Source: Alligator mississippiensis (lineage: Eukaryota). From it: a DNA stretch of 64,000 nt. The notes under the pieces were generated by a model, which was not told the DNA's origin, did no database searches, and saw only the letters and a list, made by a program, of their open reading frames with translations. The stretch is from NCBI RefSeq assembly GCF_030867095.1, contig NC_081830.1, forward strand, positions 240,717 through 304,716, read 5' to 3'. Position numbers and translations under genes: made by a program. Positions 2,004 through 61,551 of the stretch are shown piece by piece; position 1 is the stretch's first letter; each line of letters opens with the position of its first letter.

Positions 2004-2009
2004 TTTATT
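2004..2009 (-). terminator. Polyadenylation signal (AATAAA on the minus strand) for the Cys-rich membrane-protein gene.
   Basis: TTTATT on the plus strand, about 120 nt downstream of the stop at 2125. Confidence 0.4.
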
Positions 2010-2124
2010 GTGTAAAAATAATCCAAGTTACATAAAAAAACAGGGAAGGCACCAGGGTAGAGAGGGGGGGCTCCCCAAGACACCGCCCCCCCTCAAGTGA
2101 GGGGCGGAGGGGCCCCGCGCCGCC

Positions 2125-4394: not shown

Positions 4395-4750
4395 GTGCCC
4401 CCGTCCCCCCGGCCCGGGCCGGCCCACCTCGCCGCCCCGCCCCACCCAGGGCCGGCCCCACCCCCCTGACCCCGCTGTCCCGCAGGCTGTCCCGGCGCAC
4501 ACACGAGGCGGAGCCGGCGCTGCGGTCCTCACAAGGCTCTTTAATAGGCGCGGCCGCGCCGGCCCCACCCCTGCTGGGGGGCGCGGGGGGGGGGGGAGGG
4601 GGCGCCGCCCCTCCCCCTGCTTATTGCTACGGTGGGGGGGGCCGCCCCGGAGGGGGGGCGGGGCAGCGGGGAGGCCCCGCCCCCTCCTGCCCGGCCCCCC
4701 TCTGCCCCATGACCGCTAGCGGGCCCCGCGCCGCGGCCCCGCCCCTCTCA

Positions 4751-4783
4751 GTAAATAAATAAATAAATAAATAAATAAATACG
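4751..4783. repeat. (AAAT)n microsatellite providing tandem AATAAA polyA signals on the plus strand.
   Basis: The sequence reads aaataaataaataaataaataaataaat. Confidence 0.9.
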
Positions 4784-4829
4784 TAGTGTGCCGTCAAACG
4801 GACACATCCGGCCCCGGAATCAATCGATA

Positions 4830-5110
4830 AATGAGGGAGGGGCGCGGCCTAACACTGTGGGCGGGGCGTGGCGGTGGGAGGGGCAGGACCCTCTCTCCGC
4901 TCGAAGGGAGGGTGTGGCTCAGACTGACCGGGGCGTGGCCTGTGCCCTGGGGGCGTGGCCTAACACTGAGGCGTGGCCTAGCACTGGGGGCGGGGTGGGA
5001 GCCAGGGCCATCTCCCCCTGGGGCGGGGCCTGTGCCCTGGAGCGGCCGTGGCTTAACACTGGGGGCGTGGCCTAGCAGTGGGTCAGCGCGGGAGAGCCGG
5101 GGCCCGCTCT
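4830..5110. repeat. Tandem array of about 58-bp units built on the motif GCGTGGCCTAACACTGRGG (about 5 copies).
   Basis: Repeated gcgtggcctaacactg / gcgtggcctagcactg / ggcttaacactg strings between the FIMP-like ORF and the TLCD3B 3' end. Confidence 0.7.
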
Positions 5111-5147
5111 CCCCGGGCGGGCGGCTCCGCCTGAGCCTGGGGCGGGG

Positions 5148-7599: not shown

Positions 7600-7899
7600 C
7601 TGCGGGGCAGCGCGTCACCCTCAGGCCGCCGCCCGGCCCGGCCCGGCCCTCACTGCTGGTCCGAGCCCGCCCCGGCGCCCAGCCCCTCCGAGACTCGCAG
7701 TGCCCTCGGCCGGGTGGAGCTCACCCTCCCCGCGCTGCCCCAGCCCAGCCCGGGATCGCCACCCAGCCCCGGGCATCCCGGCCGAGCCGCACCCCCGCAC
7801 CAGCCCCTCCAGCGCCCCACCCCCACACACACCAGCCCTGACCCCTGACCCCGCGACCCCCGGCCCCAAACTGCCCCCGCCCCCTGGCTGCGCGGACAC

Positions 7900-8480
7900 C
7901 ACATGAATATTCATGAGCGCGGACCTCAGGCTGGTGGGCCCTGCCGGGCTGCGATTGGCCGCCAGCCGCCCCCCCGCCCTCTCCGCCTCTCATTTGAATA
8001 CTGGGCTGCAGCCTGCGCCTCATTGGGCGACCCCCGGGCTGCCTGGCATACATTTGCATCTCATTACCATGCTGCAGCACCCCCGGGCCCGCGTCCCGCC
8101 GAGGTGGTGTCGGCCCGCCCGGGCGATGAATACATTTGCATCTCATTACCCGCCAGGCCCAGCCTCCGCCCCTAGCGCCGGGCCTGGGCACGGGCCGGGC
8201 CGCCGGCGGAGTCCTGCATCTCCCGGGGCAGCCGCCTCCGCACGTCTGCACCGCGGTACCTGGCTCATCGGGGGTCCGGGCGGGCCCCTCATCTGCATAC
8301 ATTTGCATGAGGCGACCGGGGCTCGCCCGGAAAGGAGTTAGTGCCTTGTGACCTCGCGGGGCCTCATTTCCATATATTCAAACGACACCCCCAGCGAGGC
8401 GCTTGACACATTCACGACCTCCCCCCCCCCCGCCCCGCGCGAGGAATACATCTGCATCTCATTATCCCGCCCTCCGTGAA
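7900..8480. promoter_or_regulatory. Cluster of 6-7 degenerate copies of a motif of about 21 bp, ATACATTTGCATCTCATTAYC, containing octamer (ATTTGCAT) and PORE/MORE-like cores (ATGAATATTCAT, TCATTTGAATA). It lies in the TLCD3B-MAZ intergenic CpG region.
   Basis: Copies at about 7903, 7988, 8047, 8127, 8289, 8364 and 8445. ATTTGCAT occurs 4 times in 580 bp. Confidence 0.45.
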
Positions 8481-8589
8481 TACTCAGTGAGGCTCCCCCT
8501 TCAGGGGACAGGCCCGAGGCGCGTCGCCATAGCAACAGGCGGGATCCCCAGGGCGCAGCGCTCATGCGCACACAGCCAGGTCCATAGGA

Positions 8590-8870
8590 GGCCCGCTTTC
8601 TACACTGCGCATGCGCCTCTCAGTGCGCCGGGAAGCTTGCGGAGGCAGGCCGGAGCGCATGCGCAGAAAGTGACCGTAGCCAAGGCTCGATAACGGGCGC
8701 GTAAGCTCACAGCGCATGCGGAATGGAAGTAAGCACACCCCCCCCCACCCCCTCCTTTGGGGGAAAGGAGGGAGGGGCGAGAATTGCGCGCTAGCACGCA
8801 GGCGCTGCATCCAGATAACGTTTCCTGCTCCCCTTTCAGACCCTGCCAACACGCATGCGCAGTCGACTCT
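8590..8870. promoter_or_regulatory. Four NRF1-type palindromes (GCGCATGCGC-like) upstream of MAZ.
   Basis: The strings are ctgcgcatgcgcc (about 8605), gagcgcatgcgcag (about 8655), cagcgcatgcgg (about 8712) and cacgcatgcgcag (about 8857). Confidence 0.5.
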
Positions 8871-9498
8871 CGGGTCCTGGCGGGGTCCCCCGCCGCGCAC
8901 GCGCCCCCTGGCCGGCGCCCCTGATTGGCCGGCGGGCGGGCCACGCGCCAAATACAAAGAGGCGCGAGGCAGCGCGGGCGGCTGGGCGAGAGCTAGGCTG
9001 CGGCCGCTGGGGTTGAGCGTAGCGCGGCCAGGGACGACGAGGAGCGACCCTGGCAGCCGGACGCCTGCGGGCGGTCGGGCGCGGGCGGTCGGGCTGAGGG
9101 GCCCGCGGGAGCCCGCAGGGAGCAGGTGGGCCCGCGCCAGGGCGAGAACGTTCCTATGCGACTCCTCTCCACAGCCGGCGTCTCGCCGCTCTTCCCACCA
9201 TGCGTTGCGGCGGCCCGACTAGTGCGCAGGCGCGGGCCCGCCCCTGGGCGCGGGAGGGGGGGGGAAGGAGGCCCGGCGCCATTTTCGTGGCTCGGCGCAT
9301 CGCAGCGCCGCCCTTGCCGCGCACAGCCACCGCCCCTGCAAGGCGGGCCCGGCCTGTACCAAGTCCCGCGGGTGGGGCCGGGCGGGTGGTAGCGCCCAGC
9401 CCTGGCGGCCGGGGCGGCAGTGGGCCGGAGCGCCTCGGCGGCCATTTTGTGAGGGAGGGTGGGGGGGCCGCGACCGTTAGGAGCGGGCGGGGCCGGCG

Positions 9499-9602
9499 GC
9501 CAATGAGTGCGCGGCCCACGTGGGGGGGAGGTGCCGGCCAATGAGGGCGCCGCACCACCCGGCGGCCTCTCTCCCCCCGGGCGCGGTGCCGTGCCAGCCA
9601 AT
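9499..9602 (+). promoter_or_regulatory. MAZ: MAZ proximal promoter with three forward CCAAT boxes (9499, 9538, 9598) and a CACGTG E-box (9516) inside a CpG island, 150-250 bp upstream of the ATG.
   Basis: The boxes read ggccaatgag, ggccaatgag and agccaatcag; the E-box reads cccacgtgg. Confidence 0.6.
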
Positions 9603-9752
9603 CAGCGCCGGCGCCGCGACCGCCCTCGCGCCGCCACCCGCCTGCTCCCGCCCGCCCGCTCCGCGCGCTCCCTCCGCCTCCCCCCGCCCGCGCCGCGCGC
9701 TCCCCGCCCCGCCCGCCGCCCGCGGGCCCGGCCGGGCCCCCCCCCCACCGAC

Positions 9753-9788
9753 ATGGACCCCGGCAACTGGAGCAGCTTCATCTTCCAG
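9753..9788 (+). CDS. MAZ: MAZ exon 1 (MDPGNWSSFIFQ).
   Basis: ATG in a CpG island; donor cag|gtaacg. Confidence 0.8.
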
Positions 9789-12700
9789 GTAACGGCGCGG
9801 CCCGGCCCCCCCCGCCCGCCGCGCCCCGGGGGGGCCGCCCCGCCCCCCCCGCCGGGAGCCCCGCGCCCCCCCCGGCCGCGCGCCGCGCCGCCCCGCCCCC
9901 CGCGTCACCGCCGCGTCACCGCCCCCCGCGCCCTCGGTAGGGACCAGGGTTAACGCCCCGCGTGTCGTGTCGTGTCGTGTCTCCCGTGCCGCCCGCAGAG
10001 CCACGCGCAGAACCCGCTGCCCGTGGGCGCCGACCTGCAGTCCCGCTTCTTCGCCGCGCCCGGCTGCGCGCAGAGCCCCTTCCAGGTACGTCCTGCGCCC
10101 GGCCCGGCCCGGCCCGGCCCCGGGGCCTCCTGCCCCCCGCCGGCTCGGGGCCGCCCTGGCCTCCCTCCCGGGCCCGCAGGGTCTGGCAGCTCTTGTGCGC
10201 GGCCGACAGGGGCCGCCCCCGCCCCCGCCTGGCGCCCTGCCGCCGCCGGGCCGCCCCTGCGGGCTGGGCCCTCGAGCCCCTGGAAGCGGGGAGCCCCTGC
10301 CGGCCAGGCCCAAGCCAGGCTGCACATTGCCCCCGCCCGCGCGGCCCCACGTGCCCCAAGGCCGCCAGCCCGCGTGGCGGGAGCAGCCGCGTGCCAAGGG
10401 GGTCCCTGAGATGAGATGCCCCCCTCTGTCATGGGGTGACCCCCCAGAACACAGGGGGCGGGGCCTCCAGCAAGGGGCGGGGCCTGACCGTGTCCCCTCC
10501 CCCACAGGCGGCGGCCGCAGCGCCACCCCCGCCCCCACCCTCGGGGCCACCTGAGGGGCTGCAGGTTGACCTGCTGCCGGTGCTGGCGGCCGCCCAGGAG
10601 TCAGCCGCCGCCGCTGCTGCCGTAGCTGCCGCCGCTGCCGCCGCCGCAGCCCAGACCCCCGCCCCGGCCCCCACCGCCGCCTCCACCGTCGACACCGCCG
10701 CCCTCAAGGCCCCGCCCCCAGCCCCACCCGCCCCGGAGCCGCCCGCCCCGCCTGCCACCGCCCCCAGCCAGGCCCCCCCCTCAGCCGCATCCGCGGCGGC
10801 CATCGCCCAGGCGCCGCCCGTGCCAGCCCCCGCCCCGGCCCCATCCGCCGAGGCGCAGAAGAAGTCGAAGAGCAAGGGCCCCTACATCTGCTCGCTCTGC
10901 GCCAAGGAGTTCAAGAACGGCTACAACCTGCGGCGACACGAGGCCATCCACACAGGCGCCAAGGCGGCCCGGCCTGCGCCCGGCGCCATGAAGATGCCCA
11001 CCATGGTGCCACTGAGCTTGCTGAGCGTGTCAGCACTGGGCGGGGAGGCGGGGCCGGCGGCGGGTGCAGGCGGCACAGGCGGGGGCCTGGTGACCACCAC
11101 AGCCTCGGGCAAGCGCATCCGCAAGAACCACGCCTGCGAGATGTGTGGCAAGGCCTTCCGTGACGTCTATCACCTCAACCGGCACAAGCTGTCGCACTCG
11201 GACGAGAAGCCCTACCAGTGCCCCGTCTGCCAGCAGCGCTTCAAGCGCAAGGACCGCATGAGCTACCACGTGCGCTCGCACGACGGGGCCGTGCACAAGC
11301 CCTACATCTGCAGCCACTGCGGCAAGAGCTTCTCCCGGTACGTGGCGCGGGCCAGGCGGGCCGGGGGGCCACGGGCGGTGCCAGGCCCTGACCCTTTTCT
11401 CTGCCCTCCGCCAGGCCAGACCACCTGAACAGCCACGTGCGCCAGGTGCACTCCACAGAGCGGCCGTTCAAGTGTGAGGTAGGCGCCACGGAGCGAGCGG
11501 GGCAGGGGCCTGGGCATGGGGCAGGGGCCTGGCGTCACCTCCCAGGCTCAGGAAGGACCCAGGTCACTGAGACTGCAGCGGGCTGTGGACCCAGACGTCT
11601 TGGGGAGCGGGAGGTCCTGGAGGCTGTTCCTAGGAGGGGAGAGGACCCAGGCATCCGGGAAGGGGCTCCCCGGGGCCTGCAGTGCAGGAGGAAGGATCCA
11701 GGTTTCGGGGCAGGCAGGTGAGGTGAAGCCCAGCACCGCTCTGACCCTGGTCCCCACGCAGACGTGCGAGGCGGCCTTCGCCACCAAGGACCGGCTGCGG
11801 GCCCACACGGTGCGGCACGAGGAGAAGGTGCCGTGTCACGTGTGTGGCAAGATGCTGAGCGCCGCCTACATCACCGACCACATGAAGGTGCACAGCCAGG
11901 GCCCCCACCACGTCTGCGAGCTCTGCAATAAAGGTGCGATGTGGCCCTGCGCCTGTCTGTGCCCTGCGCCTGCCTTGCGATCCGCGCGTCCCAGGCACCT
12001 GAGATGCAGCCGCCGCCGGGGGGGTTCTGGGGCTACCGTGCAGCCATGGCCGGGGCACAACAAGGGCCAGGATGGGCCTAGCTCTGCTCTGTGGTGCCCA
12101 CAGGCAGTGGGCACTGGGGCAGGGAGGGGGGTGCTGGCCGCCGTCCCAGCTCTGAGATGCAGTCGCACGGGGACGTGGGCCGCCGTAGCGCCAAGGCGCC
12201 ATCGGGCAGGTGCAGGGGCCGGCCAGGAGGCGCCGCCAGCCCAGGGAGCTGCCCGCGTGCTGACGGGCGCTTTTGTTCTCGCCGCAGGCTTCACCACGGC
12301 GGCCTACCTGCGGGTGCACGCGGTCAAGGACCACGGACTGGCGGCCCCGCGGCCCGAGCGCTTCCTGTGCAAGCTCTGCGGCGTGCACTGTAAGACCCCT
12401 GCGCAGCTCAACGGGCACCTGCAGACCCACGCCGAGGGCCCGGCCCCTACCCCTGCCCCCACCGAAGCCCCACCCCTGCGCTGAGGCCCCCCCACAGGCA
12501 AGGCGTCTGGGGACCCGGCCGGGTGCAGGCACAGTGCCCGGGGCTGGGGCTGGCTGCGTCTTGGGAACGGGGTGGTGCGGCTGCATCTCAGACCAGGCAC
12601 TGGACCCAGCTGTCCAAGGGATGGAGGGGTGCGCGGCTGCATCTCAGACCTGGTGGTGGACCCAGGTGTCCAAGGGGGGGTGTGGGGGTGGCTGCATCTC

Positions 12701-14720: not shown

Positions 14721-15155
14721 ATGTCAGCCGAGGCAGTGAGGAAGGAGGAGGACGAGGCGCCCCCAGACCCTGCGCCGCCCCCGCAGCCTCCGCCCCCCTC
14801 GCCGGGGGCCCCAGTCACCACGGAGAGCCCGGCAGAGCCGCCCGCCGCCATGCAGAACGGCGTGGGCCCCGTGAGGGCCTGCTCTGCCGAGGCACTGGCA
14901 TCCCCACCCCGGCCCCCTGGTCCCCCCCGCTCCCAGTCAGACCTGGGGGGCGGCTGCGGGGCAGGGGGCAGGGCATCTGCCCCTCCTGCGCCCTCTGAGC
15001 TGGGGCCACCAGCCCAGGAGCCAGAGCCGGAGCCAGAGCCCGAGCCGGAACCAGAGCCGGAGGAGAAGCCACGGGACTTCGTGCTGCTTGCAGCCCTGGC
15101 CTGCTTCTGCCCTGTCTGGCCGGTCAACATCATCGCTTTTGCCTACGCCATCATG
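14721..15155 (+). CDS. PRRT2: PRRT2 main coding exon ([17 protein letters not shown]...(EP)6...FAYAIM).
   Basis: ATG directly follows an acceptor-like ccccgcag, implying an upstream non-coding exon. Donor atg|gtgagc. Confidence 0.85.
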
Positions 15156-15929
15156 GTGAGCCATGAGCCTGCCCTGGCCTCATCTGCATGCAGTGTGCCC
15201 TGCACCCCAAGGCGCCTGAGCAGGAGAGTGGGGGGCATGGGCTGCCCTGGGGTGTGCAGCTTGCGGGGTCAGCTGGGGGTCAGGGGATGGACCCCGGCCC
15301 TGGTCTGAGCCGGGTGGGCACAGTCCCGCAGCTCGCTCCAGCAGGGTGACGTGGACGGGGCGCGGCGACTGGGCCGTGTGGCCAAGCTGCTGAGCCTGGT
15401 GGGGCTGGGCGCCGGGGCCCTCATTATCGCCACCGTCATCGCCATGCACCCCGGTGGTAAGTGCAGCTCCCCATCCCTGGCCCCCAAAACTCTGCCCCTC
15501 GACCTCCCAACCTTGCCCCCTGCCTGTGAGCCAAGTCCCCAGGCTCCGAACCCCCGCCCCTGGGCCTCCTAGCCCTGCCTGTGGGTCCTGAAACCCCACC
15601 CCTGGGCATCTAAATCCTGCCTCCTGCATCCTAGCCCCACCTGCGGGCCCCAAAAGCCCACCCCGTGCCTCCTAGCCCCACTTCTGCCCACAGCCCCCAA
15701 AACCTGAACCCCGCCCCCTGGGCCCTGAAACTCCACCCTTGGGTTTCCAAATCCCACCCCTTTTGCCCTATGGCTCTTAGCCCTGCCCTAAACCCCAATT
15801 CCTGCGGCCTTGGCTCCACCCCCAGACCCCACCCCTCCCTGAACCCCACCCCCCGCAGCTGAAGCGGGAGGTGGGGGGGGGGGGTCGTGCTGACCACTCA
15901 CTGCCACCTTCCCCGCAGTGTTCAAGTGA
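14721..15929 (+). CDS. PRRT2: Proline-rich transmembrane protein 2, CDS span; three coding exons.
   Basis: Pro-rich N-terminus, then a C-terminal CD225/dispanin region [67 protein letters not shown]. This matches human [53 protein letters not shown]. Confidence 0.88.
15324..15456 (+). CDS. PRRT2: PRRT2 exon ([44 protein letters not shown]).
   Basis: Acceptor cacag|tcc; donor g|gtaagt. Confidence 0.8.
15919..15929 (+). CDS. PRRT2: PRRT2 terminal micro-exon (..VFK*).
   Basis: Acceptor ccccgcag|tgttcaagtga. Human ends ..GVYK*. Confidence 0.6.
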
Positions 15930-16623
15930 GGATGACGTCACCGCCGCCCCTGCCCCCTCCCTCCATCTTCTTCCCCACTCGCCATGCCCCAGCCATCCCA
16001 CACCATGTGCCCACCCACCCCAGCCCTGCTGCATGCCCCCTCACACCTGTCCCAGCATCCACTCCTCCACACGCTCCCCCCCAACCCTGCAGGCACTGCC
16101 TTGACACCGGCCCTTGCCGCTGGTGCCAGACGGACGGACCCACAGCCTGGGGACACAGGACACGGGCTGAAGGGCCCCTTCTGCAGTTGGACGGTGGACG
16201 CGGCCCGGAACCGGGCAGGGGCAGCCAGGCCCACAGAGCCCTGCCCTTGCGGGCCTTCCCAGCCGGGGACCCGCCTTTGCACGTGTTTGGCGGCCCCGAG
16301 CCGGGGCTGCATGGCCTGCTGCATGGATCTTCCTTTTTGTAACCATGGGGGCGGGGTGGGTTTATAGCGGGGAGGGGAGGGGAGGGGAGGGGGCTGCATG
16401 GGACCTGGCCACACTTTGGGGGCTGGGTGTTCTGCCAGCTCAGAGGGGGCCATGAGGCAGGGCCAGGCTGGCTGGGGTCTTCTGCTACCCAGAAATGGGG
16501 CATTTCAATGCAAAACTAGGAGGGAGTGGGAAAGGGGGAGGCTGAGGGAGATAAACGTGTGGGGGGGGGGGGGGGCCGCACGACATGGCCGCACCTTTTG
16601 TAGCCAACGCATGAAACGAGCCA

Positions 16624-16629
16624 ATAAAC
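16624..16629 (+). terminator. PRRT2: PRRT2 polyA signal AATAAA.
   Basis: The string gccaataaactcg. Confidence 0.6.
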
Positions 16630-16745
16630 TCGTCTTGCATGAGTGCTGCGTCCGCCCGTCTGTGCGTGGGGCCGGCCCGCTCCCAGCCTGCGTCCCCCCG
16701 CTCCCGCAGGGGCACAAACCAGTCAGAGCCCCGGGGCCCAAGCAT

Positions 16746-16751
16746 GTTTAT
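16746..16751 (-). terminator. CDIPT: CDIPT polyA signal (TTTATT on the plus strand).
   Basis: The string catgtttattagg, about 300 nt 3' of the CDIPT stop. It converges with the PRRT2 3' end about 100 bp away. Confidence 0.55.
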
Positions 16752-17060
16752 TAGGAGCAGGGAGGGCAAGACCCAACCACCCCAGGGCAGTGACAGCCCC
16801 GGGCTGCAAAGGCCCCTGGGACGTGGAATGACTGCCACAAAGGATTGTGGGACGAGCAGACATGGCAGGTGCATGGGGGTGGGGGTGGCTCTAGAATAAA
16901 TATGGCTGCCCATACCCCACCCAGGACCGTGGGGAGAACGAGGACGGAACGAGGTGGCGGGACACTGGACAATGCTGCAGGGCATTGTGAGACACCGGGG
17001 GCCGGAGGCAGGAAGCGGGGGGCAAGCCCTGCCCTGCACAGCCTGGCCCCAGCCCGGGCA

Positions 17061-18812: not shown

Positions 18813-20260
18813 TTATTGGGCCACAGGCTCGGTGACCTCGGCAGCGTTGGGGTCGCCGGGGTCGTTGTCCAACACGTCGCCGGGGTCGTCCTGGTCACCG
18901 GCCTCTGCTGAGTTGCTGGGCTCGGGGGCAGCGGGGTCGCGAGTGATGTCGCCGGGGTCGTTGCCATGGGCAGCACGGGGGCTGGGGGGCTCCCGCCGGG
19001 TCACCTGACTCAAGAACTTCCCGGTCCCGCCCTGGCGGGAGGGGTAGCGAATCAGGGGCTGGGGGAGGGGCAGATGGGGGAGGGGCGGAGTCAGCACCGC
19101 GCCCTGCCCCACCCTTCCTTTGTAGCCCGCCCAGGCCCCTGGGACTCCGCCCCCTGGTGCCTGGCCCCGCCCTGCCCCGTCCCAGTACCTGGATGGTGCT
19201 GAGGTCCTGCTCGGAGACCAGCGGGGACAGGCCCTCCAGCAGCCCCGAGGCCGAGCGCCGGGGGGAGCGGCGGCGCCGCGTCAGGTAGGGGCCCCCCAGC
19301 CGGTCCTCGCGGCGCAGCGCCTCCACCTGGGGGCGGGGCCAAGAGGTGGAGGGGCGGGGCTGGTCCGCTAGGGGGCAGGGCCTGGGAGGGGGAGGGGCAG
19401 GGTCGCTGGCCAGGGGGTGGGGCTTGGGGCCGGTACCTGGCGGTGGTGGGAAGGGTCACGACCCCGGAGCCCCTCCTCGTCCTCGTCGTCCTCGAGGTCG
19501 TCCTCGTCGTCGTCATCGTCCTGCTCCTAGCGGGGGCGGGAGGGGCGTGGCTGGGACCCCTCCTGCCCCCGGGCCCCCGCCCCCTGCTGGGACCCAGGTG
19601 ACCGGGGCAGGGGCCTCCTGGGGCGTCCAGAGCCAGAGGAGCCCAGGCGTGGGGGCGCGCACAGCGCGGGGGCACGCACCAGGCTGCGGCAGGACATCGC
19701 CAGCCAGGCGGCCCCGGACGCCGGGGTCCCGCAGCAGGGGCAGGTGAGGGTGGAGCTGGGGGCCGCCGCGTCTGGGCACAGCATCACTGCGGGCCGGATG
19801 GGGTCAGAGGTCAGAAGTGCCCCCGGGGTGCCTGGGCTCGAGGGGGGGTCCTGGCCCGTGCTCACCGCTCTCCGCCAAGCGCAGGGCCTCACTGCTGCGG
19901 GGGCCAGGCGGGCGGCGGGCGCGGGGGGCGGCAGCGGGGCCCAGCCCATCGCCCAGGCGTCGGGCCTGGTGGTAGCTGAGCCGTGCCTGCGCCAGCGCCT
20001 CCCCCGCCTGTGAGCGCGACACCTGTGGGAGCGGCGGGTCAGGCGGGCGCGGGGACCGAGGCGCCCAGCACACGGGGCACCCTGGAGTGCGGGCTGGAGG
20101 GACCCCGGCGCCCGCAGCACACCTGGGCGGCCTTGTGGGCGAGGCCGGCGGCGCGCAGGGCTTGGGCGGCGCAGGCCACGGTGCTGCTCACAGCGGCCGC
20201 CAGCTCCTCGGGCCCGAGGGCTGCGGGGACGTCGGGGCCGGGGGGTCCTGCCTGCTCCAT
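18813..20260 (-). CDS. Unassigned 6-exon gene (~292 aa), acidic, with RRRRSP motifs. Exons 20123-20260, 19866-20022, 19680-19786, 19437-19526, 19189-19326 and 18813-19058.
   Basis: Splice-consistent ORF. It begins MEQAGPPGPDVPAALGPEELAAAV, followed by VSRSQAGEALAQARLSYHQARRLG and VMLCPDAAAPSSTLTCPCCGTPASGAAWLAMSCRSL. Next come EQDDDDDEDDLEDDEDEEGLRGRD and VEALRREDRLGGPYLTRRRRSPRRSASGLLEGLSPLVSEQDLSTIQ. The last exon is PLIRYPSRQGGTGKFLSQ...DPGDVLDNDPGDPNAAEVTEPVAQ*. All five introns are GT-AG and phase-compatible. The TAA stop is embedded in the AATAAA signal. The gene lies about 500 bp upstream of the CDIPT start. No family recognised. Confidence 0.5.
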
Positions 20261-44013: not shown

Positions 44014-46311
44014 GTAGGGCCCGCGCTGCGCCCCTGCCCCACTCACTGCCCCCCACCGCCCCTCCCCCCGTCCTCCTGTCCCGCTCACTGCCCCCTGCCC
44101 CACCGCCCCTGCCCCGCCACCTGCTGACTGCCCCCGTCCTCCTGCCCCCACCCTCCTGCCCTGCCACCTGCTGACTGCTCCCCCATCCTGCCCCGCTGAC
44201 TGCCCCCTGCCCCCCACCCTCCTGCCCCACTGCCTGCTGACTGCCCTCCTGCCCCACTGACTGCCCCCTGCCCCGTCTTCCTGCCCCACTGACTACCCCC
44301 TGCCCCACCGCCCCTGCCCCTGCCCTCCTGCCTTGCTGACTGCCCCCCGCCCTGCTGACTGCCCCCCCTACCCCCTGCCCCTGCCCTCCTGCCCTGCTGA
44401 CTGCCCTGCCATTTGCTGACTGCCCCCCCCCCAGCTCTGGTGCTCCTGCCCCACGGCCCCCCCCAGTGCCCCCTGCTGAGAACTGCCATGTCCGGGATCC
44501 ATTGCTTCCGGTGGTCTGGCTGGAGCAGCGGGGGGCGGAGGGGCAGGTCCGGGCAGGGGAGCCCGTCGAGAGGCCCGGAGGAGGAAGCGCCAGGCACGGC
44601 CCCGCGCGGCGAGCAGAGCCCTGCTCTGCGTCAGGCCGCCCAGAGCCTGGCGCGGGCCCTGCTGGCCAGCCGCCCTCTCAGCCCCGGCCCCCGCAGGCTG
44701 GATCCTGATCGATCGGAACGGGCGCCACTTCGGCACGATCCTGAACTACCTGAGGGACGGGGCGGTGCCGCTGCCTGCGTCGCAGCGGGAGCTGGAGGAG
44801 GTGCTGTGCGAGGCGCGCTACTACCTCATCCAGGGGCTGGTGGAGGACTGCCAGCTGGCCCTGCAGGTAACCTGGGGGCGGGGGCAGGGCTCCGGCCGCA
44901 CACGGTGGGGGGGGCAGCGGTGACTGGGTGTCTCCGCGTAGAACAAGAGCGAGGCCTACGACCCCCTGTGCCTGATCCCCATGGTGACGTCCCCCAAGGA
45001 GGAGCAGCAGATCATCTCCAGCTGCTCCAAGGTGAGCGATGGGGAAGGGGCAGGACGGGGACCCTCTCCTCGCGCTGTCCTGCCCAGCTCCAACCCCCCA
45101 CCCTGTGGCTCCTCTCCCCACAGCCGGTGGTGAAATTGCTGCATAACCGGAGCAACAACAAGTATTCGTACACCAGGTAAGGATGCCCTGGCCCCCAGCC
45201 TCTGCCCTGCCCTGCCCTGCCCTGCCCTGCCCCGCTCACGGTGCCACTGCCTCCCCCCCTCCCCCAACAGCAACTCGGACGACAACCTGCTGAAGAACAT
45301 CGAGCTGTTTGACAAGCTGGCGCTGCGCTTCAACGGGCGCGTGCTCTTCGTCAAGGACGTGCTGGGCGACGAGATCTGCTGCTGGTCCTTCTACGGGCAG
45401 GGCCGCAAGATCGCCGAGGTCTGCTGTACCTCCATCGTCTATGCCACCGAAAAGAAGCAGACCAAGGTGTGGGACACCCCCCCACCCCGCAGTCGGCTTG
45501 GTACATCCTGCTAGGCAAGGCTGACAGGGAGCTGCACTGCACCCCGCCTGTGGCCACTTGCTACATTTCCCCCCCCCCCCCCAATATGGGAATTTGGTGC
45601 AACCCAGTAGGAGTGGGAAACTCCCCCCCACACCTTGGCACTTGCTATGTCCCAAATCTCTTCATCAAGCTCTACACTGGTTTGGTATGTCTCAACCCCC
45701 CATTTTATGAGCACTTGAGATGGTCCAAACCTCCCCCCCCTTATATTGGCATTTGGTATTTCCCAGAGCGCTGCCTAGCCCTAGAGCCTTGTTTAGACTT
45801 TCCCCCCTTCCCATTGATATTTGGTATGTTCCAGATCTCCCCGTTATGTTGGTATGGTACATTCCATCCCCCCTGCACTGACAGTGGTACGGTCTGAGCC
45901 CCTGTGTCCCCACCTCTTGTTGATATTTGGTACATCACACTGTGCTGAGTGAAGCCATTTTTGGTTTCTCCTATTGGTCTTTGGTACAGTCCAGAGCGAG
46001 CTGGATTGCACAGCTCCCCCATCCCAAGGGGAGTTGGTATGCCCTGGCCCCTCTGACCCCTGACCCCCGCGCAGGTGGAGTTCCCCGAGGCGCGGATCTT
46101 CGAGGAAACCCTGAACATCCTGATCTACGAGACGCCGCGGGTGCCCGACAAGGCGCTGCTGGAGGCCACGGGCGGCGCGGCCGGTGGGGGCGGGGCGGCC
46201 CGTGCCGAGGACGAGGACGGGCGCGAGCACCGGGTGCGGCGTATCCACGTGCGGCGCCACATCACTCACGACGAGCGTTCCCACGGCCACCAGGCTGTCT
46301 TCAAGGACTGA
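43761..46311 (+). CDS. KCTD13: BTB/POZ domain-containing adapter KCTD13 (BACURD1), CDS span; six coding exons.
   Basis: Near-identical to the human protein: [174 protein letters not shown] and [19 protein letters not shown]. Confidence 0.96.
44697..44866 (+). CDS. KCTD13: KCTD13 exon 2 ([57 protein letters not shown]).
   Basis: Acceptor cccgcag; donor cag|gtaacc. Confidence 0.93.
44942..45031 (+). CDS. KCTD13: KCTD13 exon 3 ([30 protein letters not shown]).
   Basis: Acceptor ccgcgtag; donor aag|gtgagc. Confidence 0.93.
45124..45176 (+). CDS. KCTD13: KCTD13 exon 4 ([18 protein letters not shown]).
   Basis: Acceptor cccacag; donor cag|gtaagg. Confidence 0.93.
45271..45466 (+). CDS. KCTD13: KCTD13 exon 5.
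   Basis: Acceptor cccaacag; donor aag|gtgtgg. Confidence 0.93.
46075..46311 (+). CDS. KCTD13: KCTD13 exon 6 (VEFPEARIF...HGHQAVFKD*).
   Basis: Acceptor cgcgcag; stop TGA at 46309-46311. Confidence 0.93.
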
Positions 46312-46992
46312 CCTCCTGGCTGCCCCCACCCTTGGTAACCTGCTCCTGACCCTTGACCTCTGCTGCCCACTGCCCCGGTGTCCGGCCGGGAGTGGGCCGG
46401 GGGGTTCTGTGTCCGCTAATGAGCTCACGGCCCAACGCCCCCCGCACTGCAGGCCAGGCTGGGACGCCCCCTCCCATTTACAGGAGGGGCGTGGGCTGTG
46501 TATGGGGGGGCTCCAAAGCACCCTGCCTCTTACAACATGGTATGTTCTACTTCCTCCCCCCAAAAAACACTATAGTACAGCCGCAGTTGCCCTTCTGTTT
46601 TCCCTGCTCCTTGAAACGGAACATGGTATGTTCCACTTACCCCCCCCAAAAAAACACTATGGTACGGCCCCAGCCACCCCTGTCCCTCACTCCTGGCTGG
46701 GTGGTATAACCCCACTGCCCCCCTTTGGAGTCATGTGGTATGCTCCAGTGTGTCTGCCCTGCCCCCAAACTGGATGGGAAACCCCAAACTCCCCCCCCCC
46801 CTTTCTAAAACAGAGCAGAGGGATCCTAAAATCTGACCCACCCCGCCCCCTGCACTGCCGCTCTCCATTCCCCTCTTTTTTGTATAATTTATTTGTAACA
46901 ATTTTGGGGGTTTTGGTTTTTGCTTTGTCTCACTTCCCTTTTTTTTTTAATTTCCCGTTGGTTTCCAGTTTCATTTTCTATTAAATTATTGG

Positions 46993-46998
46993 AATAAA
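46993..46998 (+). terminator. KCTD13: KCTD13 polyA signal AATAAA.
   Basis: The string ttggaataaagaac, about 680 nt 3' of the stop. A T-rich 3' UTR precedes it. Confidence 0.65.
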
Positions 46999-48689
46999 GA
47001 ACTGTGGGAAAGCCTGGGCTCGGCCCTCCTCCATGACCCCGGGGGGGCCAGTCCTCGTGGGCTCCGATCCTGCCCCTGGTGCTCGGGTGCCAGGCGCGAA
47101 GGGTGAGGGCCCGGCCACGCTGGGGTGCCGCAGGTTCCCACAAAAAGCACGCGGGGGCTGTCGGGTGCTCTGCGGGGTCGCGGGGGCGCAGACTGCATCA
47201 CATCCTCCACCCTGGGAGCAAACCCAGGAGCACCCAGCAGGCTGCACTGCCGAAGTGGCTGCCCTCCATGAAGGCCTGGAGACCGCAGCGGCACCCCTCG
47301 GCAGTACACGAAGACCCAGGCCTCCCCCCCAGGACCTGCGATCCAGCCACCTTGAAGCAACGGCTAGGCCCAAAGCCTGGGCCTGGTGCCCCCAAGGCCT
47401 AGCAGGGGCCAGCGCCTGGTGCTGTGGCGTGGGGCTGTGCCTCCTGCCTAGGGTCGGGCAAAGACAAGCAGCTGCTGAAGACCGGGGGCCCTGCCCCGTG
47501 CCTGCCCATGAGTAGCACTGGGCACAGGCTGGTAACCTGGCCCCAGACGGGGCAGGGGTGCTGCCCCCCCCATAGCACCCCCCAACCAGAGCAGCATGCC
47601 AGGGCTGTGGGGCACCCCCAGATGTCCCCCTGCTGCCCTGGTACCCGCGGAGCCCTGTCAGTCACCAGCCCCTCAGCTCCACCACAGCCTCATGTCTGCC
47701 CACCCTCTCGCCGGGCCCAGGCAGGGCTCAGAGACCTGCCGGCTCCGGGGAGACAGGCCATGGGGCAGCTGGCTCTGGGGGGGCACGAGCGGGGGTAGAA
47801 GCTGCTGACTCATGAATGGTTTTCACGCCTCGGATGCACGGTAATTAGTGCGTCTCCTGCATCTCGGTCGCAGCTTCGTTACCTTTGTGCAGGCTCGTCA
47901 CCCGCTGTCCCCCTCACTGCTGCACGGCATGGCCTGGTCTCTGTGCGCGCCCTGCAGGCCCCCGTGCTCTGCCAAGTCCAGAGCGCACGCTAGCACTGCC
48001 GCAGCCTTCCCAGCACTGCCCCTGGCGCCGAGGCGCAGTGCAGCTTGGCCACGTGCAGCCACGGGCCCAGGACTCGGCCTGTCACAGGTGATGCCATGGC
48101 CTGTCCGTCATGGTGCTGTTCTGTTCTGTGCTGTGCCGGTCTTGGCGTGGTGCCTGGCATGGGACACATCATGGCATGCTATAGCCTGTCCCATCGTGGG
48201 GATTAATCCCAATGGGCTCTGTCTTTGCCCACAGCAGGCAGACAGCCCTCCTCCTGCCCCCCAGCCCCTCCCCTAGCCTGGACAGCCCGGCCTCATGGGC
48301 TCGCCTCAAAGCTCAGCTCAGCATCCTCCCGTTGCCCTCCCTGCCTCCATCCCCGCCCTGGGGGCCATACCCCCAGTGTGGGGGCATAAAGGGGATTCAC
48401 GGGGCTGCATTTGGTTCACGGTTCCCTGCTCAATAACCTGAACATGCGGTCAGCCTTCCTGCTGGTGCTGCATCCGTCGTGGTGGTGCCCAGCCATTTCC
48501 CACCTGGCGCACACCCACGTTTTAACGTTCTCTGGCGGTGCCCCCGTGCCGGCAATCCCCGCGCCCGCACTTCTGAGCTCCTCGTGGCTCGTTGCCGTGG
48601 CAGTACTGCTCACCTCTGGCACACCACAGCCACACCTCGGTTGGGAAGCCCGGCGCTGGGCTGCCTCGGCCCCATTTCCCAGGTTACGA

Positions 48690-49260
48690 TGACATTACAT
48701 GATATGGTAGAGAATAATCCTCTCGCGGTCTCTTATCTTCTATTGGACTTGGATCTCTCCGCAACTGTTGTGTCCCAACGAACTGTATTAGAGCAATCAC
48801 AGCCGGTCACACTACACTTGGCATGTTAGAGTGTATCGTATGATATTATGTACTGATTGCAATAAGTACTGGTTGTGCTGTATATTGATTGTATTAGATA
48901 TCGACTGCGCTGCAACTGCTAGGTTCTAACGCGTGACATGGACCAACTGTTGCATCTTGTCCATCCTGTTCTTCTTCTACCGTGCCGTCTTCTATATCGA
49001 CTCTATTGCATCGATCGTGTTCTGCAAGTCGTACTGCTCCATCAACCACATGCATGTCATTGCCTTACATGATGTTGCATTGTATTGTACTGAACTGTGT
49101 TGTATCCATTATACTATATTGTCTTATATTACATTGATCAATATGAACTGATATTTGATCATTGTAATGGATACAATGCAATACAATGTATTGTACAGTA
49201 TAATATATCTATTATACTGTTCTACAATACATTGGATTGCGTTGTTTCTAGTCTAGCATG
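48690..49260. other. AT-rich island (about 30% GC) containing nested hairpins, in the KCTD13-SEZ6L2 intergenic region.
   Basis: For example, ccaatgtattgtacagtataata / tattatactgttctacaatacattgg forms an about 23-bp stem at 49178-49232. A second hairpin is tgatcaatatgaactgatatttgatca at 49135-49165. Confidence 0.6.
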
Positions 49261-49799
49261 TGGCTGTCCATCAGCGAGGTCACCGGTTGGGCGCGGAGCC
49301 CTGGCCGTCAAGCAGTGGCGCACGGCAAAGGCAGGGAGGAAGCGCGTGGCCAGAAAAACAAGGATCTCTCGCATCCGGTCCTCCACCCCCCTCTGCTTCG
49401 TCTCTCTTCTTTCTCCTCTCCCCCACTTTCTCTTTTCTCCGTCCCTTTATCTTTCCCTCTTCTCCCCCAACCCCCTCCTGCTGGATGTGGTCATTTTCGC
49501 TTGCGAAGGCTGAACAACAGCATGGCATGGTACACGTTACACTACACTGTAGTGTACCACTGGCTGCCATTAGAGGACAGGAGGTTACACGATGGGAGCA
49601 GGTCAGCGGTGGGTGCTGGGGCGTGGGCCTGGCGCTACCGAGTCAGGGTCAGGCACCGTCTCTGCTCCACGTGCCCCACAGCCGTCTGTGCATGTCCCCA
49701 TTGCTGACGGGGCTGCCAGGCGAGAGCCACAGGGCGGGTGCGGGGTCATGGGGTGGAGGAAGGTCCCGGCCCAGAGCAGGTAGGACAGGATACCTGAGC

Positions 49800-50285
49800 T
49801 CAGGGGGCTCAGGCAGGGGGGTGCAGGGGGGCAGGGGCGGTGCGCGGGCTTGGGGACTCAGGCAGGCAGGGCGCGGGGCAGCAGGGGCGGTGCGTGGGGC
49901 TCAGGCGGGGTGCAGGGTGGCAGGGGCGGTGCGTGGGCTTGGGGACTCAGGCGGGTGGGGCACAAGGTAGCAGGGGCAGTGTGCAGGGCTCAGGTGGGGT
50001 GTGGGGCAGCAGAGGCAGTGTGTGGGGTGCGAGGCGGCAGGGGCAGTGCGTGGGGTGCAGGGCTCAGGTGGGGTGCGGGGCGGCAGTGGCAGTGTATGGG
50101 GTGCGGGGCTCAGGTGGGGTGCAGGGAAGCAGAGGCAGTGTGCGGGCTGGCAAGGGCAGTGTGCAGGGTGTGGGGCGGCAAGGGCAGTGCGCGGGGTGCG
50201 GGGCTCAGGTGGGGTGTGGGGCGGCAGGGGCAGTGTGCGGGGTGTGGGGCGGCAGGGGCAGTGCGCGGGCCGGCGGGGGGGGAGG
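49800..50285 (+). repeat. G-rich minisatellite of about 12 × 41 bp with unit GCAGGGGCGGTGCGTGGGGCTCAGGCGGGGTGCAGGGTGGCA, ending about 100 bp 5' of the SEZ6L2 ATG.
   Basis: Highly regular tandem copies with G-runs of 3-4 on the plus strand (G-quadruplex-prone). ORFs 49840..51048 and 49901..50737 are translation artefacts of this repeat. Confidence 0.85.
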
Positions 50286-50391
50286 GAGGCCGAAGCCCGC
50301 GTGCGCGGGGCTGAGCCCGCTCCCCCCCCGCATTGCCGCCGCCGTCGCTGCTGCAGGAAAGCGCCAGAAGCCGCGCGGGTCCGGCCCCGCC

Positions 50392-55740
<5,349 letters not shown>

Positions 55741-58060: not shown

Positions 58061-58081
58061 CCCCTCCCCCTGCAGGCAGCC

Positions 58082-58455
58082 ATGGAGTCCGTGGTGACGG
58101 AGGAAGAAGGGGAAGTGACCTCGGGGATGCAGCTGCTGGCCGTGGAGGATCCTGCAGGCCCCGAGGAGGTGCCGGCCGGGGCAGAGGAGGAGCCGCAGGG
58201 GCAGGAGGAAGACACGGCGGCAGGCGGGGAGGAAGACTGGTGCGTGGGCTGCAGTGACGAGGAGGTGGAGGCCCCCGAGGCCTGGATGCCACCACCTACT
58301 GAGATCCGGCGCCTGTACGAGCTCATCGCGGCGCAGGGCAGCCTGGAGCTGCAGGCCGAGAGCCTGCCCCGCCGCGCCCCCACGCCCGAGCCCGACAGCG
58401 AGGAGGACGAGCGCTCAGATGGGCCCCCGGCCAGTGAGGAAGAGGAGGAGGAGAA
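58082..58455 (+). CDS. PAGR1: PAGR1 exon 1.
   Basis: ATG at 58082; donor aa|gtgagc (phase 2). Confidence 0.88.
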
Positions 58456-58975
58456 GTGAGCACTTGGCCTGAGTGAAGGGATGCGGGTCGGGAGCGAGGG
58501 GCACCGCTGGAGGCCAAGGGGCTTTGGGGGGCTGAAGGGCAGGGCTGAGGGGTCCCATGGGGCTCTGGGGGTTCCCCCATTCCTGCCACCCCTCCAGTGA
58601 CAACCTCTCTGCCCCCAGGCCCCACATCCCGACTGAGTTTGACTTTGACGACGAGCCTGCCTCACCCAAGAGCACCCTCATCGACCGTCGCAGAGCACCA
58701 GGTAAGCCCATGGGGGGACCCTGGCAGCCAGGCCTGGCAGGGGCAGGGGTGTGCAGGCGACCCTAGGGCTGACACATGCACTTGCCGCAGGCGCAGGGTC
58801 ACGCAGCCAGAAGCGGGAGGCGCGGCTGGATAAGGTGCTGTCAGACATGCAGCGCCACAAGCAGCTGGAGGAGCAGATCCTGCGCACCGGGCGCGACCTC
58901 TTCCAGCTGGACAGCGGTGATGAGCCCATGCCCAAGCGCCCGTCTGGACTCTTCCTGCGCCAGCGCAAGTACTGA
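58082..58975 (+). CDS. PAGR1: PAXIP1-associated glutamate-rich protein 1 (PA1), CDS span; three coding exons.
   Basis: The CDS reads [16 protein letters not shown]...[53 protein letters not shown]...[28 protein letters not shown]...[39 protein letters not shown]...LFLRQRKY*. This is highly similar to human PAGR1. Confidence 0.92.
58609..58691 (+). CDS. PAGR1: PAGR1 exon 2 ([28 protein letters not shown]).
   Basis: Acceptor ctgcccccag; donor g|gtaagc. Confidence 0.88.
58791..58975 (+). CDS. PAGR1: PAGR1 exon 3 (..[35 protein letters not shown]...RQRKY*).
   Basis: Acceptor cttgccgcag; stop TGA at 58973-58975. Confidence 0.9.
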
Positions 58976-59795: not shown

Positions 59796-61551
59796 TCACT
59801 CGCTGTCGTCCTCGTCGCTGCTGATGATGCCGCGGAGCTGGGACCAGTCGGGGCGGGTGCGGGGGGGGCTGGGCGCTGGCGGGGTGCTGGGCGCCGCGTA
59901 CAAGCTCCATACATTGCGGCGGCGTGGGCGGCCTGCGCAGGGAGGGCAGAGGTCAGAGCACCGGGGAACCCAGGCATCCAGCCCCCACCCCCTGCTCAGT
60001 CGCTGTACGCACCGTGGGAGGGAATGATGTTGCCCAAGTCCAGCGCGGCCACCTCAGCCTCCTGCTCGCGGCGCAGGCGCACCTCCTGGCATCGCTGCAG
60101 CGATGGGCGCCCTGCAGGGTGGGGAGGAAGGGGGTTGAGTGGGGCTGCAGGGGCATCCCCAGCCCTGGCCCCCACTGCCACTCACCATCCAGGCCGAGCG
60201 CAGCCAGCTCCTGGCGCAGCACAGCCACGCGCTCCCGCCGGCTCCGGCACCCGCCCAGCAGCTTGCGATAGTTGGGCCGCACGCCACAGACGCGCAGGTA
60301 CCGCTTCAAGCGCCGCACCTCTGGGGCGTCCCCCGGCTCCTGCTTTCCCGTCCGCAGCCGGCCCTGTGTGCACGCGCTGGTCAGCCAGATAGCGGGCCTC
60401 CTGCCGCCCTGCTGTGCCCCATCCAGCCCCCAACACCCGGGTCCCCTGCTGCTTTACTGGCCCAGAGCTCTCAGCGCCCCTGGGCCCCACACTCACCTTC
60501 TGCTTCTTGCCCCCGGCGGCGCTGTGGGAGCGGGTGTTCTCCTGCGGGCGGGTGTTCTCCTCGTCGGAGGAGGACGAGGACGAGGAGGAGGAAGAGGAGG
60601 AGTCTTCGGCGCTCGCCTCCCGCTCCTTGTCCCCTGCCCCGGCCTCCCCCTCTGGCACGGACGCCTCTGGGCTCTCACTGCTGTTGGCCTTCATCTTTTT
60701 GGCCTCAGGGCTCTTGGCATCCCTGGCCCTTGGCTTCTTGGCCTCCGGGCTCCCCGTGTGCCTGGGACTCAGCTTCTTGGCCTCTGGGCTCTCGAGGTCC
60801 GCAGCCCTCAGTTTCTTGGTCTCTGGGCTCTTGGCCTCCCTGTCCGAGCCGTCGCTGTCGGAGCTGGACTCTGGGGGAGGCGAGGGGCTGGGGCTGGCGC
60901 TACTCTCATGCTCGGCGGCAGCTCTGGGCTTCTCGGCCTGCACAGACGGGTTGGGGTTGGAGCGGGCGAGACCCGCGGCGGGGGGCACGGGGGGGGGGGG
61001 GGGGGGGGTGACATGGGGGGTCCTCACCTGCGTGCGCAGCTCGGCCTCCACCAGGCGCCGCAGCAACCGCTTCTCGCCCGGCATCAGGCTCCCGTGCCCC
61101 GACTGTGCCACGAACCGGCGCCGCACGGCCCCCAGCGTCAGCGCGCTGCGGGGGTGTCAGCATGGGCGCGGGTCCCGGCCAGCTCCCACCGTCCTGCGTG
61201 CCCCGGAGCCAGGGCGGCCCAGCTCCCACAATCCTCTGCTCCCCGATGAACCCACTAGCCCAGCTCCCACAGTCCTTTGCTGCTCCCTATAACCCCACCA
61301 TAGAACCCAGGCGGGCCAGCTCCCACAATCCTTTGCTTCCCTGGGGAACCCAGGTGTCCTCGGTCCCACAATTTTCTGCTCCCCACAATGGACCCAGGGG
61401 CCCTGCCTCCCAGAATCCTTTGCGCTGCCACCCTGGTCTCCCAGGCAACCCAGGTGCCCCCGCCCCTTGCCCGGGGTCACCTGGGGTCGCGGCTGTCTTC
61501 GAAGAGCCGCCGCGTGAATTCGCGCAGTTCCTGCTCCCGCTCCGCCGCCAT
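59796..61551 (-). CDS. HIRIP3: HIRA-interacting protein 3. About six coding exons: about 61481-61551, 61028-61144, about 60496-61000 (large acidic Ser/Glu-rich exon), about 60186-60363, 60013-60111 and 59796-59932.
   Basis: The protein begins MAAEREQELREFTRRLF and includes VRRRFVAQSGHGSLMPGEKRLLRRLVEAELRTQ. The acidic/serine exon has repeated SPEAKK motifs and a poly-Ser tract. The CHZ-like region has MRRLKRYLRVCGVRPNYRKLLGGCRSRRERVAVLRQELAALGLD and ..AEVAALDLGNIIPSH. The C-terminus PDWSQLRGIISSDEDDSE* matches human PDWSHMRGIISSDGESN*. Confidence 0.9.

Follow-up and report, generated by a model that had tools for sequence, protein, structure and literature searches.

No intact ASPHD1 gene between KCTD13 and SEZ6L2

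The DNA analysed here is a 64-kb stretch of the Alligator mississippiensis genome (the window, below) that lies in the region syntenic with human 16p11.2 and has a GC content of 65-80% over most of its length. We focus on the 3.4-kb spacer between two of its genes, which extends from the polyadenylation signal of KCTD13 (46993-46998) to the initiation codon of SEZ6L2 at 50393, and which appears to hold the decayed remains of ASPHD1. The gene map was built from six-frame open reading frames (ORFs) and from tblastn searches with human 16p11.2 proteins. Two of these human query sequences were checked: ASPHD1 was 99% identical to Pan ASPHD1, and MVP scored 1984 bits against the MVP sequence in PDB. 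The features of the spacer and its borders are as follows.

46075-46311, plus strand: last coding exon of KCTD13, with the stop codon at 46309-46311
46312-47015, plus strand: 3′ untranslated region (3′UTR) of KCTD13, with the polyadenylation signal AATAAA at 46993-46998
47089-47162, minus strand: putative relic of the last ASPHD1 exon (blocks B1 and B2), reading 'DSPRVLFV', then a 1-bp deletion, then 'NLRHPSVAGPSPFAPG'; the turtle counterpart is a stretch of 31 residues
47234-47287, minus strand: possible relic middle block (M), 'CGLQAFMEGSHFGSAACW' against 'ALRTFVSANRFGNACFS', seen at the protein level only and in a third frame
47490-47541, minus strand: putative relic of ASPHD1 exon 1 (block A), 'ARLPACAQCYSWAGTGQ' against turtle 'LRAYAQRYSWAGMGR'
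about 48690-49260, no strand assigned: AT-rich island of nested hairpins (34-43% GC), with inverted repeats I1, I6 and I7
49375-49480, plus strand: polypyrimidine (CT-rich) tract, read from the sequence
49803-50269, plus strand: minisatellite 120-590 bp before the SEZ6L2 ATG, its G-rich strand being the sense strand of that gene
50393-50446, plus strand: first coding exon of SEZ6L2 (signal peptide), read from the sequence and the ORFs

A six-frame Pfam scan of 46900-50500 with stop codons masked returned no family at E<=10, and so no Asp_Arg_Hydrox domain (PF05118). Searches by tblastn with human, monotreme, squamate, amphibian and turtle ASPHD1 queries gave no significant match anywhere in the 64 kb, the best E-values among the ASPHD1 and MVP searches being 0.03-0.3. 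The ASPHD1 orthologues did return recurring weak matches (E 0.1-1) on the minus strand at 47067-47310, distributed over three frames, and the 226-aa relic ORF matched no Pfam family. Of the three marks of a coding ASPHD1 gene (domain, intact ORF and catalytic core), none was found in the spacer. The initial annotation had described the spacer as free of AspH-like ORFs; this holds for an intact ORF or domain, but not for decayed exon remnants, which were found at 47541-47089 on the minus strand.

Two blocks similar to turtle ASPHD1 exons

In the turtles Pangshura tecta and Mauremys mutica, the corresponding locus carries SEZ6L2, ASPHD1 and KCTD13 in that order. Turtle ASPHD1 is intact, with three exons, 304-307 aa and the Pfam Asp_Arg_Hydrox domain, and is convergent with KCTD13. 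In Pangshura tecta, G-rich minisatellites with 46-47-nt units lie directly 5′ of the ASPHD1 ATG and fill both introns (9713-9991, 10705-11073 and 11228-11524 of that locus); such repeat-rich surroundings could favour deletions.

Comparison of the alligator spacer with the turtle loci by blastn aligned 47529-47490 with turtle exon 1 (82.5% identity over 40 nt, E ~1e-5 to 2e-5), the matched turtle stretch encoding A-Y-A-Q-R-Y-S-W-A-G-M-G-R. In both turtles, exon 3 aligned with the segment 47162-47107, at 77% identity across 57 nt including a single gap (E 3e-6 to 2e-5); the turtle stretch concerned encodes 18 residues. Co-linear with these are blocks of the turtle KCTD13 3′UTR, at 47011-46974 (the polyadenylation region; 87% over 38 nt, E 2e-7 to 4e-7), 46920-46879, 46662-46619 and 46464-46440, the last of which was found with one of the two turtles only. 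The putative relic thus lies on the minus strand just past the KCTD13 polyadenylation site and is convergent with KCTD13, as is the functional turtle ASPHD1. The middle block showed no DNA-level similarity to turtle beyond chance; it lies inside the ORF that ranked top against the ASPHD1 profile (E 0.31, profile positions 216-236).

When the whole window was searched on both strands, the top matches of turtle exon 1 and exon 3 were these same two segments, 47529-47490 and 47162-47107. Both are on the minus strand and follow the expected order, with 328 nt between them, and both fall within the 3.4-kb interval in which synteny would place the gene. For the second turtle, only the two exon blocks and three KCTD13 3′UTR blocks, all of them co-linear, gave sense-strand matches at E<0.01. 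The exon-3 block scored 41.9 bits, compared with a mean of 26.9, a standard deviation of 1.9 and a maximum of 31.9 bits in 100 dinucleotide shuffles.

At the protein level, a profile hidden Markov model of ASPHD1 ranked the relic ORF at 47201-47398 (minus strand) first of 1464 six-frame ORFs, and the three blocks follow one another in profile order. Frameshift-tolerant protein-DNA alignment on the minus strand gave z ~3-7 over shuffles with turtle, squamate and newt queries and 1.4-3.6 with the human query, but this aligner over-fits in GC-rich DNA and its fine detail was not relied on. Two further matches, the N-terminal 'PWPVSPEPA' and 'GGQPLRQC', were discarded as being without DNA support; the latter overlaps the middle block on the DNA.

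The remaining ASPHD1 similarity therefore exceeds what chance would be expected to give, and a chance origin appears very unlikely, since the best matches of both exons fall 328 nt apart with the expected strand and order within the synteny interval.

Disabling lesions in the ASPHD1 remnant

The blocks are spread over three reading frames: A at 47541-47491, M at 47287-47234 (protein level only), B1 at 47162-47139 and B2 at 47136-47089, A and B2 sharing one frame. The shift from B1 to B2 corresponds to a 1-bp deletion at 47138/47139 visible in the DNA alignment, and it falls inside a conserved 12-residue motif, the Trp of which is also changed to Arg. In the frame shared by A and B2 there is no Met upstream of A, the sole Met lying downstream of both blocks, and the frame runs past the position of the conserved stop codon, which is lost.

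The distance between the exon-1 and last-exon blocks is ~330 nt, versus ~1280 nt in turtle, and only 71 nt separate M from B1. The core that binds Fe and 2-oxoglutarate ('GPTN.R.RCHLGL ... HT..HNG') gave no match to profile positions ~237-300, and turtle exon 2 showed no DNA similarity in the alligator relic. From the ~330-nt and 71-nt gaps between the blocks, the catalytic core segment and both introns are gone from alligator ASPHD1, leaving a remnant that spans ~450 bp versus 1657 bp for the turtle gene.

Base composition over 47200-47800 is also informative: the observed/expected CpG ratio of the relic is 0.25-0.32 despite 68-72% GC, and several of its differences from turtle are CpG-to-TpG changes, as would fit unconstrained (methylated) DNA. 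A sensitive search for ASPHD1 exons in the interval, the success of which the initial annotation had expected to count against the absence of the gene, did return exon remnants, but they belong to a frameshifted and internally deleted pseudogene, not to a gene.

Agreement of two assemblies across the spacer

An older, separately deposited alligator assembly, GCA_000281125.4, has entries in the protein cluster of alligator SEZ6L2. Its contig AKHW03001719.1 is 100% identical to the window over 46792-50276, a stretch of 3485 bp aligned without any gap. The genes on this contig follow the order of the window, namely KCTD13, SEZ6L2, PAGR1, HIRIP3 and INO80E, and the 64-kb window itself has no N. 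The older assembly carries a 1108-N gap over 50277-51416, which covers the SEZ6L2 5′ exons (80%+ GC) and is filled in the window. Smaller gaps of the older assembly, at 45574-45583, 53343-53368 and 60994-61003, and a 20-N run near 46792-46809 are likewise all resolved in the window. An assembly collapse, one of the three explanations first offered for the missing gene (the others being genuine loss and relocation), is rejected by the ungapped agreement over 46792-50276.

The AT-rich island and the G-rich minisatellite

The AT-rich hairpin island and G-rich minisatellite first noticed in the spacer were both confirmed, by composition, folding and Tandem Repeats Finder (TRF). Within the island, 49170-49248 is a near-perfect palindrome: aligned to its reverse complement, it matches at 83% over 82 nt (E 9e-18). 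The wider segment 49040-49260, folded as single-stranded DNA, reaches -40.2 kcal/mol, with z -6.5 compared with shuffles. The CpG observed/expected ratio of the island is unusually high (0.95 at 48800-49000, GC 43%) versus 0.25-0.32 in the relic, so that the island lacks the CpG depletion expected of old methylated vertebrate DNA.

Two other identities of the island were considered and rejected. It is not recognisable as foreign or mobile DNA, being single-copy in the window, unrelated to the other fetched loci, and devoid of phage, plasmid and Pfam matches. Nor is the palindrome (49163-49259) an Rfam RNA gene: miRNA-like hairpins were matched on both strands below threshold, at <=30.6 bits against gathering scores of 85-200. 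The best of these was MIR860, a plant family, with 30.6 bits against a gathering score of 89, so that the palindrome presents a generic hairpin shape only. In being AT-rich and near-palindromic and in folding far better than shuffles, 49170-49248 resembles palindromic AT-rich repeats (PATRRs) and miRNA-like hairpins. It differs from human PATRRs in being much shorter (~80 nt), with nested imperfect arms, and we assign it to neither class.

TRF reported periods of 28, 46, 74 and 89 nt for the minisatellite at 49803-50269, with 2-5 copies that match at 66-86%, the highest score being 318. Comparable G-rich arrays lie directly 5′ of SEZ6L2 in Pangshura tecta (4303-4645 of the turtle locus) and ostrich (9856-10220 of the ostrich locus), with loosely similar units. 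Since its position is shared with turtle and ostrich, the minisatellite is most plausibly an ancient promoter-proximal element of SEZ6L2, and not filler that took the place of ASPHD1. The array has putative G-quadruplex potential.

PAGR1, MVP and the sauropsid gene order

The initial annotation had also noted that MVP and PAGR1 lie between PRRT2 and CDIPT in human, and had seen no vault ORF at the alligator junction. The human order we take to be PRRT2-PAGR1-MVP-CDIPT-SEZ6L2-ASPHD1-KCTD13-TMEM219-TAOK2-HIRIP3-INO80E-DOC2A-C16orf92-TLCD3B. The alligator junction is as follows.

16623-16752, no strand assigned: convergent 3′ ends of PRRT2 (plus strand) and CDIPT (minus strand), with AATAAA at 16623 (plus) and TTTATT at 16747 (minus); the ends are ~100 bp apart

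The description of this junction as about 100 bp long and without a vault ORF was borne out by the two polyadenylation signals. It has no room for MVP or PAGR1, and no vault or PAXIP1_C sequence was found in it.

PAGR1 is not at that position, but its three coding exons lie elsewhere in the window, at 58076-58972 (plus strand), where the gene is flanked by SEZ6L2 and HIRIP3. It was identified by tblastn with the human query (E 2e-32 and 7e-31) and by the Pfam family PAXIP1_C (PF15364), which matched over its full profile (1-132) with E 3e-45 and 154 bits against a cut-off of 27. The order SEZ6L2-PAGR1-HIRIP3-INO80E is common to the alligator window, the older alligator contig and the ostrich locus.

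For MVP, tblastn with human, platypus, tuatara, lizard, python and caecilian queries gave best E-values of 0.3-0.87 in the 64 kb, and the well-conserved last exon was not found either. In python, MVP lies 4 kb from the TLCD3B 3′ end, with TLCD3B downstream on the opposite strand. The exons of alligator TLCD3B follow the python locus co-linearly and are oriented such that MVP would fall past the left edge of the window, and by this analogy alligator MVP is predicted to lie beside TLCD3B just past that edge. The 5.2 kb to the left of TLCD3B within the window contain no vault exon, and the spacing between MVP and TLCD3B, if the arrangement is present, is therefore larger than that of python. Chicken MVP is on chr28 (PMC2907691), and birds at least therefore retain the gene. 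The best 120 matches of a protein search with human MVP were from mammals, squamates and amphibians only, and a literature search on alligator MVP found nothing useful.

The absence of MVP and PAGR1 from the PRRT2-CDIPT junction is a difference in sauropsid gene order and not evidence of loss, because PAGR1 sits between SEZ6L2 and HIRIP3 in alligator and ostrich, and MVP sits by TLCD3B in python. The claim that MVP is missing where human synteny predicts it therefore stands as far as the 64 kb contain no vault sequence, but the expectation taken from the human order does not apply to sauropsids. Relative to human, the alligator has the distinct junctions PRRT2-CDIPT, TLCD3B-MAZ, CDIPT with the 3′ side of TAOK2, and SEZ6L2-PAGR1, and its TAOK2-to-SEZ6L2 block is inverted with respect to the flanks. 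The human and sauropsid 16p11.2 blocks differ by at least two rearrangements, and the positions of MVP and PAGR1 in reptiles and birds are poorly predicted from the order of the human genes.

Other genes and features of the window

The genes across the window were located as follows.

5212-6927, minus strand: TLCD3B (FAM57B) exons, by blastn and tblastx, co-linear with 32823-37540 of the python locus
about 11.5-12.5 kb, plus strand: MAZ
15069-15428, plus strand: PRRT2 C-terminal exons, by tblastn
18185-17070, minus strand: CDIPT exons, by tblastn
25.4-37.5 kb, minus strand: TAOK2
about 41.1-41.3 kb, minus strand: TMEM219
43761-46311, plus strand: KCTD13, six exons, 332 aa
ATG at 50393 to an end at about 55.7 kb, plus strand: SEZ6L2
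58076-58972, plus strand: PAGR1, three coding exons
about 59.6-61.3 kb, minus strand: HIRIP3
about 61.9-63.6 kb, plus strand: INO80E

The coding exons of KCTD13 are 43761-44013, 44697-44866, 44942-45031, 45124-45176, 45271-45466 and 46075-46311, and their spliced 332-aa translation is identical to Alligator XP_059586374.1. SEZ6L2 matches XP_059586360 of Alligator mississippiensis. The DNA is therefore crocodilian and not, as its GC content might have suggested, from a bird. A C-rich minisatellite (units ~12-93 nt, motif CTGCCCC...) lies in KCTD13 intron 1 at 44046-44429.

Within the TAOK2 span, a second and larger AT-rich stretch (28000-30000; 35-40% GC) is rich in simple sequence of the TG/CA type and showed no similarity to the island at 48.7-49.3 kb. 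The same gene region contains a 660-codon open frame at 30552-32531 (minus strand) with ~15 tandem copies of a ~13-aa 'LEPDG....LG.' unit, which may represent a lineage-specific expansion in a long C-terminal TAOK2 exon. Between CDIPT and the TAOK2 3′ end, at 18816-19526 (minus strand), there are long acidic ORFs (DDDDDEDDLEDDEDEE; NDPGD repeats); the one at 18816-19280, which was the member of this group scanned against Pfam, matched no family.

Distribution of ASPHD1 among vertebrates

Among the database matches, proteins named ASPHD1 came from mammals including monotremes, squamates, turtles, amphibians and lungfish; birds appeared as ASPHD2 only, and there was no crocodilian ASPHD1. The turtle ASPHD1 protein cluster consists of 15 turtles and nothing else, and alligator ASPHD2, looked for as a positive control, is not among the 15 listed members of the cluster of turtle and bird ASPHD2. 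In ostrich, the 10 kb upstream of SEZ6L2 contain neither KCTD13 nor any trace of ASPHD1. Nearly all of this ostrich segment (1-10220 of the locus) is made up of GC-rich minisatellite arrays, whose units measure 16-254 nt and which in some cases reach 50-65 copies, and no gene was called in it. At the level of annotation, the named database matches and the turtle ASPHD1 cluster are consistent with the absence of ASPHD1 from both archosaur branches. A literature search found no paper linking ASPHD1 to birds, chicken or evolutionary gene loss, and the lineage-specific loss is apparently unreported.

Discussion

In our view, it is highly probable that the spacer is genuine sequence holding a unitary pseudogene of ASPHD1, and that the absence of MVP and PAGR1 from the PRRT2-CDIPT junction reflects the sauropsid gene order. 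Genuine lineage-specific loss, another of the explanations first offered for the missing ASPHD1, gains support from the frameshifted, internally deleted remnants in the spacer, and it is because the remains of a dead gene are present and two assemblies agree that we regard the gene as truly lost here. ASPHD1 would have been inactivated in the crocodilian lineage, or possibly on the archosaur stem, and the dead copy would then have decayed by substitution, including CpG decay, and by deletion.

Several observations weigh against this interpretation. Taken singly, every protein-level ASPHD1 match is non-significant (E 0.1-1). The exon-1 block is less secure than the exon-3 block, as 3 of the 100 shuffled versions of exon 1 attained 41.9 bits, giving a window-wide p of ~0.03 for this block alone. 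Beyond the two DNA blocks, alignment to turtle is no better than chance, which leaves the limits of the relic uncertain, as regards both the middle block and anything above 47541. Even at 100%, the agreement of two assemblies is not in itself proof of independence, whether of the underlying reads or of the individual. The search for ASPHD1 covered the 64-kb window, and a functional copy may lie elsewhere in the alligator genome. On the side of MVP, a chimeric SEZ6L2+MVP protein query meant to reach crocodilian or bird MVP returned SEZ6L2 matches only.

The weak protein-level scores, the large part of the putative relic that does not align, and the high background of GC-rich DNA, in which other exon-1 matches reach 38 bits and shuffled exon 1 does as well as stated above, could also be taken to mean that the similarity is accidental, ASPHD1 having been cleanly deleted or moved elsewhere and the spacer being unrelated intergenic DNA. 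We regard this as improbable: the exon-3 block stands ~8 standard deviations above its shuffle null, and the best exon-1 and exon-3 matches in the 128 kb of strand searched fall together on the expected strand, in the expected order and interval. The blocks moreover adjoin the co-linear KCTD13 3′UTR blocks, the result was replicated with two turtles, and the matched peptides are the most conserved motifs of ASPHD1. If the blocks are homologous, they might still have been kept for a non-coding role, as a downstream or termination element of KCTD13 or as an exon of a long non-coding RNA, given that they retain ~80% identity with turtles after very long divergence and lie within 100-550 bp of the KCTD13 polyadenylation site. 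However, evolution is very slow in crocodilians and turtles, the blocks that survive are no more than the best-conserved coding motifs, and the low CpG ratio of the relic (0.25-0.32) with its several CpG-to-TpG substitutions speaks against constraint, which makes such a role very improbable.

An artefact of assembly, in which an intact and very GC-rich ASPHD1 (and MVP) was dropped or mis-joined by the assembler, deserves mention since the region has 65-80% GC and N gaps replace nearby GC-rich exons in the older assembly, for example at 50277-51416. GC-rich regions are known to drop out of sauropsid assemblies, as discussed in the literature on 'missing genes' of birds. Yet the two assemblies are equal base for base over 46792-50276 with no gap, the window is free of N, and the relic blocks are ordered within 450 bp, leaving no space for the missing core. 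A collapse would also not yield a 1-bp frameshift and substitutions inside conserved motifs, and in the case of MVP the transcript ends of PRRT2 and CDIPT are only ~100 bp apart. We therefore consider collapse extremely improbable, and retain the interpretation of an ASPHD1 pseudogene in genuine sequence.

The alligator locus resembles the functional ASPHD1 locus of turtles and of human 16p11.2 in its position between SEZ6L2 and KCTD13 and its convergence with KCTD13, and resembles that of turtles further in the co-linear KCTD13 3′UTR blocks and in two exon blocks of 77-83% identical DNA. Whereas the turtle gene is intact with its domain, the alligator copy is split over three frames, has a 1-bp deletion and is without the core or recognisable introns. 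As in other unitary pseudogenes (e.g. GULO in primates), the remnant occupies the orthologous position and has disabling mutations, and no annotated functional copy was found; it differs in being far more decayed, with two or three short blocks left. The locus shares extreme GC content and older-assembly gaps over neighbouring exons with the 'hidden' GC-rich genes of sauropsids, but in this case two assemblies are identical and without gaps across the interval, which has a dead gene inside; the absence is therefore biological. Alligator ASPHD1 is thus a fresh case of a well-known type of event, the unitary pseudogene, combined with lineage-specific rearrangement.

More speculatively, a single inactivation of ASPHD1 might have preceded the split between birds and crocodilians, with the slow-evolving alligator keeping the sole recognisable remnant, and the palindrome of the AT-rich island might be a cruciform-prone breakpoint behind the internal deletions or the sauropsid 16p11.2 rearrangements; we think this combined scenario rather unlikely.

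Losses of GC-rich genes in sauropsids are usually suspected as artefacts, and this locus may serve as a positive control in which a dead gene and the agreement of two assemblies decide the matter. ASPHD1 is an uncharacterised 2-oxoglutarate-oxygenase-like gene in the human 16p11.2 interval of copy number variation in autism and obesity. That a long-lived vertebrate lineage would have lost ASPHD1 while keeping its neighbours KCTD13, SEZ6L2, TAOK2, PAGR1, HIRIP3 and INO80E provides a small piece of evidence on the dispensability of this gene.

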